A stretch of DNA of 64,000 nucleotides, taken from assembly GCA_003173895.1 (NCBI GenBank), contig PJMG01000006.1, positions 2,820-66,819 on the forward strand. The letters are read 5' to 3'. The translations under genes were made by a program, and so were the position numbers. The notes below the pieces were generated by a model, which saw only the letters and a program-made list of their open reading frames with translations, made no database searches and had not been told where the DNA came from. Every line of letters begins with the position of its first letter. Position 1 is the first letter of the stretch. Shown in pieces: positions 49,765 through 63,825 of this stretch. This DNA is from Candidatus Levyibacteriota bacterium. GTDB lineage: Bacteria; Patescibacteriota; Microgenomatia; Levybacterales; UBA12049.

Positions 49765-50490
49765 ATGAATAAAACAGAAGCCTTAAGTTATCAATTGTAT
49801 CTGGAACTACCCTATGATCCTACCGGAGAAAGCTATAGATTAGATCAACCTCAAACTGATGGGAGCGAAAATTTAGAGGTAAGAGATCAAGCAGTAGAAT
49901 TCGCCATGATGGAAAAACTTTTAGAACAAACTGCTGATGAAAATGTGAATTGGAAAAATATACTAGCTTCTTTAGATAATGAAAATAGGACTAATCAGCC
50001 TAGTTTATTTAGTCCGGATATACTTACTGCTACACTTAATTTATCTACTTTTAACAAAGTTCAATTTTCTGAAAGTTTCGGCTATCAAGGAAAAAAGCAT
50101 AATTATTCTCGATATGGAAATATGAATACTATCCCAGCTGGAAAGCAAATTCTTAACATGTCACTTCAGCCTTTTTCTGAAGATGTAATTTTACTTCACA
50201 CTATAGTAGGTTTACCAGAAACTAAAGAAAAGAATACTACTTTTAGAAATATCGAATTTACTTATATTCGCTCGAAAAGTACTAACCAACCACTCTATGT
50301 TTCATTGAAAGAACGAAGATCACAAAAACCAGCAGCTTCGATAGAAGATGAACCAACTTTTAATTTCACATTTATATTTCATCCTGAAGAGAATCCTAAA
50401 AATACTTTTCTGGAAATGTCTATAAGTGGAACTCAGAGACCCACACCTTTTCATGGATCATTTTACAACACGAGAAAAAGACTTTCATAA
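49765..50490 (+). CDS. hypothetical protein (island)
   Basis: Intact ORF; no domain. Confidence 0.45.
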   Translation: MNKTEALSYQLYLELPYDPTGESYRLDQPQTDGSENLEVRDQAVEFAMMEKLLEQTADENVNWKNILASLDNENRTNQPSLFSPDILTATLNLSTFNKVQFSESFGYQGKKHNYSRYGNMNTIPAGKQILNMSLQPFSEDVILLHTIVGLPETKEKNTTFRNIEFTYIRSKSTNQPLYVSLKERRSQKPAASIEDEPTFNFTFIFHPEENPKNTFLEMSISGTQRPTPFHGSFYNTRKRLS

Positions 50491-50531
50491 TTGACAATTT
50501 TAAAATAGATGATTATCATGTTAATGATAAT

Positions 50532-51203
50532 ATGCCACGCAGCGAACTTATATGGCAAGAAGTTAAAGATCGTTTAAATCCTCGTATTATTCATACTAAA
50601 AATCCTGAACAATTTGCTCAAAAAATTGCTAAACATAGTTCTCGTAGAGAATTCATTCCCGAGCTAATAATTATAGAATCTAGTGTAAATCCTTTAACTG
50701 AAGGATTTCAAATGGAAACATATAGAGGCAATAAAACTATTCGCTACAGAGAAAATCCTCCACGTAGAAAAAAAGCTGAAGTAATTCCTCATAATTTATG
50801 TGAACCAACTAGACAAGCTAGTCAAGCTGCGAGAAGAGCTAGAGAAGAGAATTTATTACCGTCTATTTATCAAATAGCCACTTCTGCTAATGCTATAGCC
50901 AGTTTTTTAGATGAGACGGCGGGAGTAAGTAGTAATCTTGGATCTTGGGTAAGTGAAAATAGAATTGCTATTTTAAAAGCATTAAATACAGCTGTTAAAA
51001 GAGAAGATTCTGTTAGAGCAGCTATTAAAAATGAGTTTATTAAAAAAGGTGATCCTGAACCAGGAATTATGGTTCATTATTCACCAGGTTTTGGAGATTT
51101 AATAACACGCCGTATACATGGAGACAGAGAACAAGTATTACAAGTGCTTAATAAAAGCAACAATCCAGCAGCTATAGCTCCCTGGCCATCTAGTGGTAAA
51201 TAG
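50532..51203 (+). CDS. hypothetical protein (island)
   Basis: Intact ORF; no domain. Confidence 0.45.
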   Translation: MPRSELIWQEVKDRLNPRIIHTKNPEQFAQKIAKHSSRREFIPELIIIESSVNPLTEGFQMETYRGNKTIRYRENPPRRKKAEVIPHNLCEPTRQASQAARRAREENLLPSIYQIATSANAIASFLDETAGVSSNLGSWVSENRIAILKALNTAVKREDSVRAAIKNEFIKKGDPEPGIMVHYSPGFGDLITRRIHGDREQVLQVLNKSNNPAAIAPWPSSGK

Positions 51204-51211
51204 TAAGAAAA

Positions 51212-51964
51212 TTAAATAGGATCTTTACTCAATGCTTGTACTGCTAACGGATATAATTGTTTATAGATTTTGGCTCCCGCTTTTGCACCTTTTGCTATAA
51301 AAGGCCCTATGTGATATGACATAATCGTAGGAAGTATATCACCTTCAGCCAACCCATCTAGAGAAGCTAAAATAGTTTCTAAAGAGATTTGGAGTAATTG
51401 GTCTCCGGTAGGATCTTGAAGAAGTGAACTTCTGGCTAATTTTCTCTCGTTAAGTAATGTAGTTTTATTTGCCGCATCTTCTAGTAATCCTAATCGTGTT
51501 CGCCTGCGAAAACTTTCGGGAGATTTGGCTGTTTTTAGTTTTGCTTGTTCACTACCTAATAAAATACCATGAAGGACATTTTCTAAACCATATGAAAAGT
51601 CATACCAAAAAATAAAACCTATCTGAGAATTATCTTTATTAAATTGATTGGATATAGATTCCATGGGTAAGGAGATATTTTCTAGTATTGCCTCAGCAGT
51701 CAATTGAGGGGCTGTAGGTAGTATAGTCTTATACAATAAGCTTTTTTCTTTAAAATAACGTATTATTTTATTCTTATTTCTATAAATAGAATGAGTTATC
51801 TCTTGTATTAATGGCTCTCCCATTTCCTGTGTAAAATCCTGTATAGTAGATAAATTAGGATCTATTAATTGCCCTAAAGATGAACGTTCAGCAACTATGT
51901 CGCTTCTTTCACTCGTTGTAAGAGGAGACCAGAGATCTCCTAGACCGAATAGTTTTTCTGCCAT
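51212..51964 (-). CDS. hypothetical protein (island)
   Basis: Intact ORF; no domain. Confidence 0.45.
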   Translation of the reverse strand: MAEKLFGLGDLWSPLTTSERSDIVAERSSLGQLIDPNLSTIQDFTQEMGEPLIQEITHSIYRNKNKIIRYFKEKSLLYKTILPTAPQLTAEAILENISLPMESISNQFNKDNSQIGFIFWYDFSYGLENVLHGILLGSEQAKLKTAKSPESFRRRTRLGLLEDAANKTTLLNERKLARSSLLQDPTGDQLLQISLETILASLDGLAEGDILPTIMSYHIGPFIAKGAKAGAKIYKQLYPLAVQALSKDPI

Positions 51965-52032
51965 AACCTGAGATCACTTTAGCATATATTCTAGAATTGT
52001 CAATCTTAATTGGAGCTTACAGCCAGGCAAAT

Positions 52033-61696: not shown

Positions 61697-61791
61697 ATAT
61701 TCTAGAACGAAATGTACACCTCCAAAGTACTCTTGTCAATAGCTTGGTTAAAATTTGACAACTACGATTTTATGTCCTATAATTCTGCCCT

Positions 61792-62418
61792 ATGAGTGAA
61801 TCTTTTAACCCCCATGCAGCTTATGAAAAATGGCGTCAATCTCTACCCGATTATTCTGTAGGCTTAAGAGGTCAAAGTTCCCAATTCAACGAGACTATTC
61901 TAGAACATGGTTTTGATAAACGCAGATGGTATTTTGCTATTAATCTTTCTGAACTAGATTGGGATGGGATGAGAGAAATTAGAGGAGAACTTCATGACTG
62001 GTTTGACTATTTAGTACGCTTTGGAAAAGAAGCTAGTACTAATAAATCAAGAGAAATTACTTTGGATACTCCAGAACAATGTTTAACTTATTTCAGTCAA
62101 CATCCTCAAGAGTATATATCACTTTTGTTATTAAAATTTCCTGGAATTAGAGGATGGTATCATTCACATAATATAATTAGAGTGAGCTTAGGCGGTGAAG
62201 AACAACAAACATTTCAACATAAACTCTCTCGTAACTTTATAGTTAAAGATCTTTATTTAAACCAATCAGACTTTGAAAGAGTGCGAGAGGAATTAGTTAA
62301 AAGAGGGTTAGATCTTAATGATCCGAAATATAAAGATATTATGACCAATAAACTTTCTCGTTTAATGTTAAGAAAAGTGTTAAGTGAAATAACACATCTT
62401 GAGAGTTCTGAGAGATAA
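61792..62418 (+). CDS. hypothetical protein (island)
   Basis: Intact ORF. Confidence 0.45.
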   Translation: MSESFNPHAAYEKWRQSLPDYSVGLRGQSSQFNETILEHGFDKRRWYFAINLSELDWDGMREIRGELHDWFDYLVRFGKEASTNKSREITLDTPEQCLTYFSQHPQEYISLLLLKFPGIRGWYHSHNIIRVSLGGEEQQTFQHKLSRNFIVKDLYLNQSDFERVREELVKRGLDLNDPKYKDIMTNKLSRLMLRKVLSEITHLESSER

Positions 62419-62426
62419 AACAAAGC

Positions 62427-63044
62427 TTAATTAACTCCGTTTTTACCTTCTTTTATCATTATTATTGCGTAAGGTTGATCTTTAATTAAGTTTAATAATT
62501 CTGGATTTTCATAAAAATGAGCGCTACCCGCCTGTAAAATAAGTTTTCTTCTTAAATATCTATATCTGAATTTTCGTAAAGTATCTTTTATAGTAGCATT
62601 GAGTGAATCATTTCGTTGTAGTGCTTTTAAATTCGATTCTTTTTGTTTTTCCAAAGCTATATTTGTTAGATGTAACCTTTCTTGCATTGAAATTCCGAGC
62701 TCTTCTGATGCTGTAGTTGCTGCATTGGATTCTTCTTGTAAAGCGTCAGATTCATCGTATTTTTTTATATCATCCCACCCTATCGTTTTAGTCCCAAATT
62801 TTACTCCAAATTCTCTTCTACTTAATCTCCATGGATATCTTCTTCCTTTTTCGCGCCCTTCAATAGCTAGTAAATGTCCTAAACCAGTATGTTCTTTTAT
62901 TATTCTATTTTCATTTTGAACTGAGTCTGCGTCTTCATGATTAAGTCCAATACAAATAACTCGGGCTTTTTTAAGCGGAACGTTAGCTGAATAAATAGTA
63001 TATGCTTCTTGATTCATAGAGAAAATTTTATCATAGGATTGCAA
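62427..63044 (-). CDS. hypothetical protein (island)
   Basis: Intact ORF. Confidence 0.45.
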   Translation of the reverse strand: MQSYDKIFSMNQEAYTIYSANVPLKKARVICIGLNHEDADSVQNENRIIKEHTGLGHLLAIEGREKGRRYPWRLSRREFGVKFGTKTIGWDDIKKYDESDALQEESNAATTASEELGISMQERLHLTNIALEKQKESNLKALQRNDSLNATIKDTLRKFRYRYLRRKLILQAGSAHFYENPELLNLIKDQPYAIIMIKEGKNGVN

Positions 63045-63825
63045 TTGGATTACCTTCTAGATCCACAGGTAGTAAACCTTTTTTAATAAGCAGTTGAGCG
63101 GCAAATCTAAAGCGAGGTTGTAACAATTCGTATAAATATAAAGGAACTACGATAACTTCACAAGATTTTCCATTTGTAAATGTTAATGTATATTTGACAC
63201 TATTGGCTATACTATATTCTCCACGCCTTACCTGTGGTTTAGAAGTATAATTGAGTTTTTGATTTTCCACAGCCATTACTGGAAAGATATAGTAAGGATC
63301 TTCTGGAAAATGGCGTTCTTTGTCAGCTAAATCATATATAAAAGTAGTTAATCTGTTAAAAGGTCCTTTAGATTCACAGGTATACAATTCTGCTCGTTGC
63401 ACATTTTGTATACCTACATGCTTAGACACATGCTTAAAATATGCTTTATGCCAACCTCTTCTTTCTACTAAAAATGCTGTATTAGCCAGATCATGTCTTT
63501 GCCTAGAAGTAAAAGTACCGTTGAGATATGTTTGAACAGTTTCTTCATGAATTTGTTTTTCTTCGTCAGTAAGCTGAGTTAAAATCGCAGCTTCATGAAA
63601 TCCTGGAGCTTTAACATTACATATGGTTCTTATTCCTATATGATTCCCACTTAAATAATATAAGTCTTGTGTATCAGTTTGTATAGGATTATACTCTCTC
63701 TTTCTTCTCATCCCTAGTCGTAGCAGAGTTTCCCCCATAACATTAACTTCTCCTGATTTTGTTTTGAAAGGAGGACGCACATTACCTGATTCCTGATTTC
63801 TAATGAGAAATTCTACTAGTGGCAT
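63031..63825 (-). CDS. hypothetical protein (island)
   Basis: Intact ORF; 14-nt overlap with downstream gene. Confidence 0.45.
   Translation of the reverse strand: MPLVEFLIRNQESGNVRPPFKTKSGEVNVMGETLLRLGMRRKREYNPIQTDTQDLYYLSGNHIGIRTICNVKAPGFHEAAILTQLTDEEKQIHEETVQTYLNGTFTSRQRHDLANTAFLVERRGWHKAYFKHVSKHVGIQNVQRAELYTCESKGPFNRLTTFIYDLADKERHFPEDPYYIFPVMAVENQKLNYTSKPQVRRGEYSIANSVKYTLTFTNGKSCEVIVVPLYLYELLQPRFRFAAQLLIKKGLLPVDLEGNPIAIL

Follow-up and report, generated by a model that had tools for sequence, protein, structure and literature searches.

A patch of nineteen mostly orphan genes with host-like composition and expression signals beside an efflux operon of a Candidatus Levyibacteriota bacterium

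Results

The patch and its genes

Between positions 49765 and 63825 of a 64,000-nucleotide stretch of the Candidatus Levyibacteriota contig PJMG01000006.1 (this whole stretch is called the window here) lies a dense series of long open reading frames (ORFs), which we refer to as the patch. It holds 19 genes, 14 of them on the minus strand (Table 1). We show that these genes are real, that their orphan status is genuine and that their synonymous-site composition is that of the host, and we favour the view that they are long-standing residents of the lineage. An original prediction from the sequence had described 17 consecutive ORFs mostly on the minus strand; the long ORFs and the strand bias stood, whereas the count is 19 in this analysis. 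It had also placed the start of the patch right after an efflux operon and its other end at the end of the window, and this was borne out: the 241-amino-acid (aa) gene follows a MacB-type operon (45943-49709), the patch runs to the window edge, and approximately 12.7 kb of the contig lies outside the window.

The patch ORFs are real coding sequences because 17 of the products are identical to public NCBI gene calls, all on one 76,714-bp contig, because a representative sequence library contains the 543-aa product over its full length at 100% identity, and because every ORF has the coding pattern GC1 > GC2 > GC3 (GC content at the first, second and third codon positions), with GC1 at 0.42-0.53 and GC3 at 0.12-0.24. 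A 1,233-bp segment (54360-55592) was also 100% identical to a Logan contig from run SRR490139. One candidate, a 72-aa ORF with a TTG start (60519-60737, minus strand), had a GC3 of 0.315 and no coding signature and was rejected as spurious; its place is taken by plus-strand genes of 52 aa and 99 aa, both NCBI calls.

Table 1. Genes of the patch, with positions in the window
Product	Position	Strand	Evidence and remarks
241-aa orphan, first gene past the MacB-type efflux operon	49765..50490	+	Exact NCBI call, singleton cluster; GC3 0.194; no Pfam, PHROG or PADLOC match; no phage/plasmid tblastn match
223-aa orphan	50532..51203	+	Singleton; no Pfam, PHROG or PADLOC match; 11/12 promoter TTGACA-17-TATCAT ending 12 nt before ATG
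250-aa orphan	51212..51964	-	Singleton; no Pfam, PHROG or PADLOC match; promoter TTGACA-16-TAAAGT 11 nt from start
543-aa two-domain protein: predicted class I SAM-methyltransferase fold (N-half, ~41-258), all-alpha C-half (~259-543)	52033..53664	-	Motifs PMAPxxTD and ITRRxDxP in C-half
128-aa orphan	53915..54301	-	Singleton; no Pfam match
174-aa orphan	54374..54898	-	No Pfam or PHROG match; DNA within the 1,233-bp stretch matching the SRR490139 contig
195-aa predicted Tat-type lipoprotein	54996..55583	-	DRRGFLK twin-arginine motif, LLTAC lipobox; sub-threshold Pfam TAT_signal
210-aa orphan	55587..56219	-	Singleton; no Pfam, PHROG or PADLOC match
92-aa orphan, TTG start	56253..56531	-	Exact NCBI call; no Pfam match
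290-aa protein, two C-terminal hydrophobic segments	56643..57515	-	One homologue (P0017); promoter TTGACA-17-TAAAGT 6 nt from ATG
565-aa orphan, largest of the patch	57707..59404	-	Self-match only in 5.8 billion clusters; no Pfam, PHROG or PADLOC match
115-aa cupin	59539..59886	-	Pfam Cupin_2, E = 1.7e-11, 44.1 bits (cut-off 27.2)
130-aa orphan	59935..60327	-	Exact NCBI call, singleton; no Pfam match
52-aa small protein, hydrophobic stretch	60443..60601	+	NCBI call; 49-aa variant in another Logan sample
99-aa Cys-containing orphan	60668..60967	+	NCBI call; GC1 0.45, GC2 0.47, GC3 0.14
233-aa orphan, divergent from the 208-aa gene	60995..61696	-	Singleton; no Pfam or PHROG match; non-credible PADLOC DpdH match
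208-aa orphan	61792..62418	+	Singleton; perfect TTGACA-17-TATAAT ending 8 nt before ATG
196-aa orphan, NCBI start (ORF reaches 63044 from a TTG)	62427..63017	-	Exact 196-aa product in collection, 205-aa version not; no credible Pfam match; no PDB sequence match
264-aa orphan, last gene visible in the window	63031..63825	-	Singleton; no genome-collection or IMG/VR relatives; promoter TTGACA-17-TAAAAT 6 nt from ATG

Orphan status of the products

No Pfam family could be assigned to 16 of the 18 patch ORFs scanned, compared with 10 of 43 control ORFs (at least 120 aa, from the 50 kb of the window outside the patch; Fisher p = 2.5e-6). Assignment of the controls was by Pfam or NCBIfam, and the 33 assigned included RpoD, GlnA, Nramp, TrkH, an MFS transporter, a histidine kinase, PLD and IS1595. 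Pfam matches in the patch were limited to Cupin_2 and a sub-threshold TAT_signal. The claim that nothing in the patch is assignable beyond methyltransferase-like, Tat-lipoprotein and cupin features is upheld, and those three features are themselves present, that of the Tat lipoprotein as a predicted signal.

Fifteen products were looked up by exact sequence; all were in the collection and 14 formed singleton clusters, the exception being the 52-aa product, whose 49-aa relative carries conservative changes. The 264-aa protein had no relative in 185,579 species-representative genomes (the source genome itself being outside that collection) and none in IMG/VR, and eight IMG/VR scans were all negative. 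The 10 largest products gave zero PHROG matches in a scan that did recognize TerL and portal proteins in a phage-like contig (L022, below), and tblastn of all patch products found no match in 50,697 phage or 72,556 plasmid records. PADLOC, run on 10 products, returned a single match, DpdH on the 233-aa protein (E = 0.0075, 0 stretches), which is not credible. A phmmer search against PDB sequences with all products bar the cupin, 52-aa and 99-aa proteins gave nothing at E values up to 1, Rfam at permissive thresholds gave no RNA in the patch, and no paralogues were found within it. A single-sequence AlphaFold2 (AF2) model of the 565-aa protein was unusable, with a predicted local distance difference test score (pLDDT) of 36. 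The orphan status of the patch is genuine and beyond chance.

Two candidate identities were considered. The 99-aa ORF had a weak, colinear PDB phmmer match to ribosomal eL42/L44e at E = 0.67, with an N-terminal MxNVPxTxK, and an eL42 hidden Markov model made from two sequences gave it no more than 3.6 bits (E = 1.9, with 370 ORFs of the window scored); we regard the likeness as chance. A possible likeness of the 196-aa protein to Tiki/TraB/ChaN proteins (GxxH ... E ... RNxxL ... GSAH) was unsupported by Pfam or by PDB sequence search.

Composition

Composition was compared with the other 50 kb of the window. Overall GC was 33.0% in the patch versus 31.4% in the rest, and other 14-kb blocks of the window spanned 29.8-33.5%. 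Segments of 500 bp with at least 35% GC made up 16% of the patch and 18% of the DNA outside it, and those with at least 40% GC were rarer in the patch (0.7% versus 1.8%); the local GC of 35-45%, against approximately 30%, that had been taken as atypical is thus not a property of this region. Median GC3 was 0.180 in the patch and 0.183 elsewhere (p = 0.66), and the tetranucleotide correlation of patch with rest was 0.975, controls giving 0.970-0.993. In synonymous-codon distance the patch, at 0.034, ranked just above every other contiguous block of 18 genes (highest value 0.032; permutation p = 0.017). The tetranucleotide and codon-usage comparison proposed in the original prediction, here run against the rest of the window, came out host-like for GC3 and tetranucleotides and marginally high for codon distance. 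We conclude that the synonymous-site and oligonucleotide composition of the patch is that of its host.

The proteins do differ in amino-acid usage. GC1 was higher in the patch (0.481 versus 0.413, p = 1e-4) and the summed fraction of Lys, Asn and Ile (K+N+I) was lower (median 0.19 versus 0.234, p = 7e-4), confirming that the strong Lys/Asn/Ile bias seen elsewhere is lacking here. Similar K+N+I values are found in conserved enzymes of the window, such as GlnA (0.197), an FMN reductase (0.199) and glyoxalases (0.16-0.18). This less AT-driven usage may stem from functional constraint on the proteins or from ancestry in donors of higher GC, and it speaks against their having arisen de novo out of the AT-rich DNA around them. 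All loci with homologues of patch genes have 38-63% GC; this does not discriminate between origins because relatives of the ordinary efflux operon show similar values (40-55%).

Promoters, gene starts and transcription units

The best sigma-70-type matches of the region sit immediately upstream of genes. A perfect TTGACA-17-TATAAT lies ahead of the 543-aa and 208-aa genes and matches of 10-11/12 precede the 223-, 250-, 290-, 565-, 233- and 264-aa genes, giving eight patch genes in all with a match of at least 10/12. The -10 box often ends 6-14 nt before the start codon in the patch; counted at 5-15 nt from the start it is present in 10 of 19 patch genes and in 18 of 43 genes elsewhere, and Shine-Dalgarno (SD)-like motifs precede 1 of 19 and 3 of 43 respectively, the one in the patch being a GGAG upstream of the 195-aa lipoprotein gene. 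Across the whole window, 4 of 62 gene starts have an SD-like motif and 28 of 62 a -10-like box 5-15 nt upstream, which suggests that leaderless mRNAs are widespread in this DNA. The arrangement at the 208-aa gene suggests a leaderless mRNA, and the patch genes start in the manner of the host's other genes, probably leaderless for the most part.

Upstream gaps in the patch range from 3 to 250 bp around a median of approximately 84 bp, and no more than 6 of the 18 are at least 100 bp long; the spacer of 100-250 bp said to precede each ORF is therefore not general. The spacing of 3 nt between the 210-aa and 195-aa genes suggests an operon, as do the short gaps from the 264-aa to the 196-aa gene (13 nt) and from the 130-aa gene to the cupin gene, and a fair estimate is that the patch comprises about ten transcription units.

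An identical 15-nt element, GTCCTATAATTGACA (coding strand), is present upstream of the 290-aa (57545-57564) and 264-aa (63855-63874) genes, its 10-nt core recurs upstream of the 223-aa gene (50487-50496), and a related box, GTCCTATAAT, precedes the 208-aa gene. From their make-up these elements are probably tandem consensus promoter boxes. A shared motif, ATAATTGACA, has three exact copies, all in the patch and each 30-40 nt before a start codon; copies with one mismatch were at chance level (12 observed versus 13.3 expected), and the motif is best explained as an overlap between the consensus -10 and -35 hexamers of promoters in tandem.

Mobile-element marks and synteny

There was no tRNA gene in the window and, in 49765-64000, no integrase or transposase detectable with Pfam and no meaningful flanking direct or inverted repeat; the far boundary of the patch lies past the window end. 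Twelve metagenome-assembled genomes, eight of them labelled Patescibacteria or subgroups of it, contained relatives of the efflux operon. These relatives (loci L001-L011) are 55-82% identical, have 40-55% GC and come from variously labelled taxa, and they have no flanking genes in common with the window or with each other. The efflux operon may itself move between lineages, and taxonomy read from it would be shaky. The synteny comparison suggested in the original prediction therefore reached only as far as this operon: conserved flanks are absent on either side in the nearest genomes, and no empty insertion site can be defined because they share the efflux operon only.

The 543-aa methyltransferase/all-alpha fusion

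An exhaustive HMMER search of 1.8 billion representatives gave 13 distant homologues of the 543-aa protein, each spanning either residues ~41-258 or ~259-543 and never both. An AF2 model built with the homologues had a mean pLDDT of 77 and of approximately 90 in the C-terminal half. The N-domain has a Rossmann-like methyltransferase fold together with a glycine-rich motif I, and it is, by predicted fold, a class I S-adenosylmethionine (SAM)-dependent methyltransferase. It differs from the Methyltransf_11/12/25-like members of that class in reaching no Pfam model: the whole protein had no Pfam family even at E = 0.1, and one homologue (P0012) touched Methyltransf_12 at 26.2 bits, under the 30-bit cut-off. 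The (D/N)PP(Y/F) motif of amino-group DNA methylases is absent from the sequence.

The C-domain, with the conserved motifs PMAPxxTD, TTxxH, FRVT and ITRRxDxP, had no identifying Foldseek match in PDB or BFVD. Its best PDB match, AddAB at E = 3.8e-4, was of low probability and very poor TM-score, and BFVD held nothing below E = 1e-3. It is homologous to the central region of an 815-aa protein, P0005 (phmmer E = 3.4e-20, in the same 1.8 billion representatives), the gene for which lies on a tightly packed contig, L022, in the order TerL (phrog_38, 1e-46), portal (phrog_10963, 4e-42), P0005 and a head-morphogenesis gene. Among the head-module genes of L022 is one (8383-9285) for a 300-aa protein that matches PI3_PI4_kinase in Pfam, an unusual phage cargo. 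Two stand-alone homologues, P0006 and P0009, are each encoded between a glyoxalase-family gene and a MazG-like gene, and this order recurs in two unrelated contexts (L023+L024, 9577-11249; L025, 1401-3705). In L025 two small ORFs lie between the glyoxalase-family and C-domain genes and the C-domain and MazG-like genes share a stop/start base; in L023/L024 these latter genes are 16 nt apart and the neighbourhood includes Mrr, AAA_15, a helix-turn-helix (HTH) protein and a large serine recombinase. None of these loci (L021-L026) has a patch gene in common beyond the C-domain. A metagenome scan with the C-domain alignment found nothing and was of low sensitivity, as such scans missed a Joint Genome Institute (JGI) contig carrying the one homologue of the 290-aa protein (P0017, below).

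The all-alpha domain running from PMAPxxTD to ITRRxDxP is a previously undescribed family with about ten representatives in 1.8 billion sequences. It occurs in a phage head-module protein, beside MazG in chromosomes and, only here, fused to a methyltransferase. This fusion is one of the small new items of the analysis, along with the two tiny protein families that have conflict-like contexts. Genes for packaged multidomain effector proteins sit at a portal/head-morphogenesis position like that of P0005 (Iyer et al., 2017; PMC5512222). The gene for P0005 is at the head-module position described for such polyvalent virion-packaged proteins, and the enzymatic fusion in the 543-aa protein, a methyltransferase, fits their general theme. 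Unlike them, the 543-aa protein has two domains only, is encoded in a chromosomal setting that lacks virion and conjugation genes, has no MuF, portal or ArdC-type anchor domain detectable with Pfam, and is the only listed protein to join its two domains.

The 290-aa protein and other functional handles

The hydrophobic segments of the 290-aa protein span residues 190-208 and 219-247. A search of 5.8 billion clusters gave a single homologue, P0017 (51% identity), whose gene is the last of an operon of VWA, an unknown and AAA_5 genes, after a 10-nt gap and beside an HTH-PIN toxin-antitoxin pair; this locus (L018) has no patch gene in common except the 290-aa gene. A metagenome scan with the 290-aa alignment found nothing and missed the JGI contig that carries P0017, showing its low sensitivity. 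The only homologue thus ends an operon like those of MoxR-type AAA+/VWA systems. In contrast, the patch gene has its own promoter and is preceded by the unrelated 565-aa orphan, and no AAA_5 or VWA protein is encoded in the patch according to Pfam. The link of this small membrane-protein family to VWA/AAA_5 operons is a modest gain.

The twin-arginine motif and lipobox of the 195-aa protein were read from the translation, its TAT_signal match being 17.6 bits (cut-off 22.7), and the metal-binding motifs of the cupin, HKHENMDE followed further on by a His, can be seen in the same way. Hydrophobic segments occur only in the 290-aa product and, as read by eye, in the 52-aa ORF, whose hydrophobic stretch probably spans the membrane once; 16 of the 19 products are soluble and without signals, and the description of the proteins as hydrophilic and largely non-membrane is accurate.

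Other features of the window

Three features lie outside the patch. An IS1595-family transposase gene (36264-37136, plus strand; DDE_Tnp_IS1595 E = 1.5e-35, with a zinc ribbon) represents mobile DNA in the genome. Rfam gave a DUF3800-IX RNA motif (5737-5806, plus strand) at 61.1 bits, against a gathering score of 36.8, directly next to the 3' end of a DUF3800 gene that is on the opposite strand (5809-6426, minus strand). A second group of large ORFs with no or nearly no Pfam match lies at 6684-14724 (516, 235, 228, 844 and 498 aa); those of 235, 844 and 498 aa have a GC2 of 0.48-0.51 and very few acidic residues, unlike the patch proteins, and may encode surface proteins.

Discussion

The interpretation we favour, with moderate confidence, is that the patch is a long-resident, lineage-specific accessory region of an AT-rich host, composed of about 19 unrelated, heterogeneous, mostly cytoplasmic and independently transcribed genes. 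Recent acquisition is argued against because synonymous-site composition and expression signals are native, and the genes would have been in the lineage long enough for full amelioration or would have been born within it. They would provide independent accessory functions, among them a predicted methyltransferase, a metal-binding cupin, an exported lipoprotein and a membrane-anchored protein, kept individually and not as one system. Lineage-specific genes of unknown function had been the weakest of the readings in the original prediction, and it is this one that survives. Runs of hypothetical genes are ordinary in such genomes. The patch resembles the flexible or ORFan regions of candidate phyla radiation (CPR) bacteria in being a contiguous set of lineage-restricted hypothetical genes without family in a small AT-rich genome. 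Hypothetical proteins are likewise reported to make up most of the families enriched in Microgenomates and Parcubacteria, and membrane localization is predicted for 14 of 35 Microgenomates-enriched and 12 of 20 Parcubacteria-enriched families (PMC6744442); the patch differs from these in its largely soluble, signal-free products and in that its proteins are singletons, not CPR-wide families.

It is possible, although on present evidence somewhat doubtful, that mobile elements and host-parasite conflict supplied the gene pool from which the patch, or at least some of it, derives. Such an ancestry is plausible for two genes, those for the 543-aa and 290-aa proteins, because of the contexts in which their only homologues are found. 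Several points weigh against our interpretation as a whole. The mobile-element ancestry rests on 2 of 19 genes and on the contexts of distant (23-51% identical) homologues, with no support from PHROGs or from PADLOC beyond its one marginal, non-credible match. The compositional reference is only the other 50 kb of the window and not the genome, and the marginally high codon distance may mark a slight compositional peculiarity. Structure models cover two of the 19 proteins, the shared orientation of 14 genes could reflect a shared function, and an integrase, tRNA or phage hallmark genes may lie just outside the window.

The alternative that survives best, itself unlikely, is that the genes form one co-functional, lineage-specific system, for example a novel defence or modification system around the methyltransferase, unseen by current libraries. 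Co-orientation of most of the genes, the sub-operons of the 210- and 195-aa and of the 264- and 196-aa genes, the 15-nt GTCCTATAATTGACA before the 290-aa and 264-aa genes with its relative GTCCTATAAT before the 208-aa gene, and the defence-like neighbourhoods in which homologues of two genes are found would all fit this idea. However, the two genes with homologues do not co-occur elsewhere, the P0017 locus having only the 290-aa gene and L021-L026 only the C-domain; the lone PADLOC match is marginal; there are many separate promoters; and by our estimate 14 kb of DNA of this composition would hold approximately 0.5 exact 15-nt repeats by chance, the present one being made up of consensus -10 and -35 hexamers. 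The genes are not one machine, nor do they add up to a defined system.

Slightly less likely still is a recently acquired genomic island or degraded prophage, in which the patch would be foreign DNA beside the efflux operon. The run of orphans is dense and mostly co-oriented, as accessory genes beside a transporter operon are in such elements, the 543-aa protein shares its C-domain with a protein whose gene, on a phage-like contig, stands between those for a portal and a head-morphogenesis protein, the IS1595 transposase elsewhere in the window shows active mobile DNA, the codon distance is marginally high (p = 0.017), and hallmark genes are possibly out of view as the patch reaches the window end. 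Against these, the patch shows none of the synonymous-site or tetranucleotide deviation of an island; GC3, tetranucleotides and block GC are host-like and so are promoters and start sites, which contradicts the horizontally acquired island of the original prediction in so far as acquisition would be recent. Its degraded prophage has no positive evidence in the window. No hallmark protein (terminase, portal, capsid, tail or integrase) was found in the patch by PHROGs or tblastn, the 10 largest proteins, the phage and plasmid records and the eight IMG/VR scans all came back empty, and no tRNA, integrase or flanking repeat is in view; moreover, spaced genes with individual promoters are unlike tightly packed phage modules such as that of L022. 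Perhaps the patch and the unseen 12.7 kb together form a mobile element or conflict system of Patescibacteria that has gone unrecognized, its proteins being too divergent for current libraries, a proposal that we consider improbable.

We give lower weight again to the idea that an episymbiotic or intracellular bacterium secretes these proteins as effectors. In common with many effector repertoires, they are hydrophilic, restricted to the lineage, fast-evolving and transcribed from individual promoters; one of them is a predicted exported lipoprotein, and CPR bacteria are thought to be host-dependent (PMC6744442, as general background). The effector or host-interaction set of the original prediction thus keeps one export signal in its favour, but this is 1 of 19 products, with hydrophobic segments in two; Pfam revealed neither a secretion-system gene nor any eukaryote-like or toxin domain, no dedicated protein-injection apparatus is visible in the window, and the amino-acid make-up (K+N+I 0.16-0.20) is like that of ordinary conserved enzymes of the window. 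Finally, that the ORFs are annotation artefacts or non-functional decaying sequence is close to refuted already: most have no homologues from which constraint could be measured, but in DNA of 31% GC chance alone would very rarely give ORFs of 128-565 codons, frame-specific composition is strong in all of them, consensus promoters stand at the right distance, both products with homologues are conserved across their full length, and the sole spurious-looking ORF was found and dropped.

Our preferred reading, a resident accessory region, carries a lesson in calibration: a run of orphan genes alone is no evidence of horizontal transfer, and here the decisive composition tests and the expression signals are host-like. 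The gain is a clean set of 19 real, almost all singleton proteins from a poorly known lineage, suited to structure-based annotation. If the patch did prove to belong to an unrecognized element, the fusion of a methyltransferase to a phage-associated domain would represent an effector module of the kind that phages inject, now domesticated or resident, and the 290-aa membrane protein would be an effector that has parted from a sensor operon of the VWA/AAA_5 type. An origin of these genes in mobile elements and conflict would enlarge what little is known of host-parasite conflict genes in the CPR.

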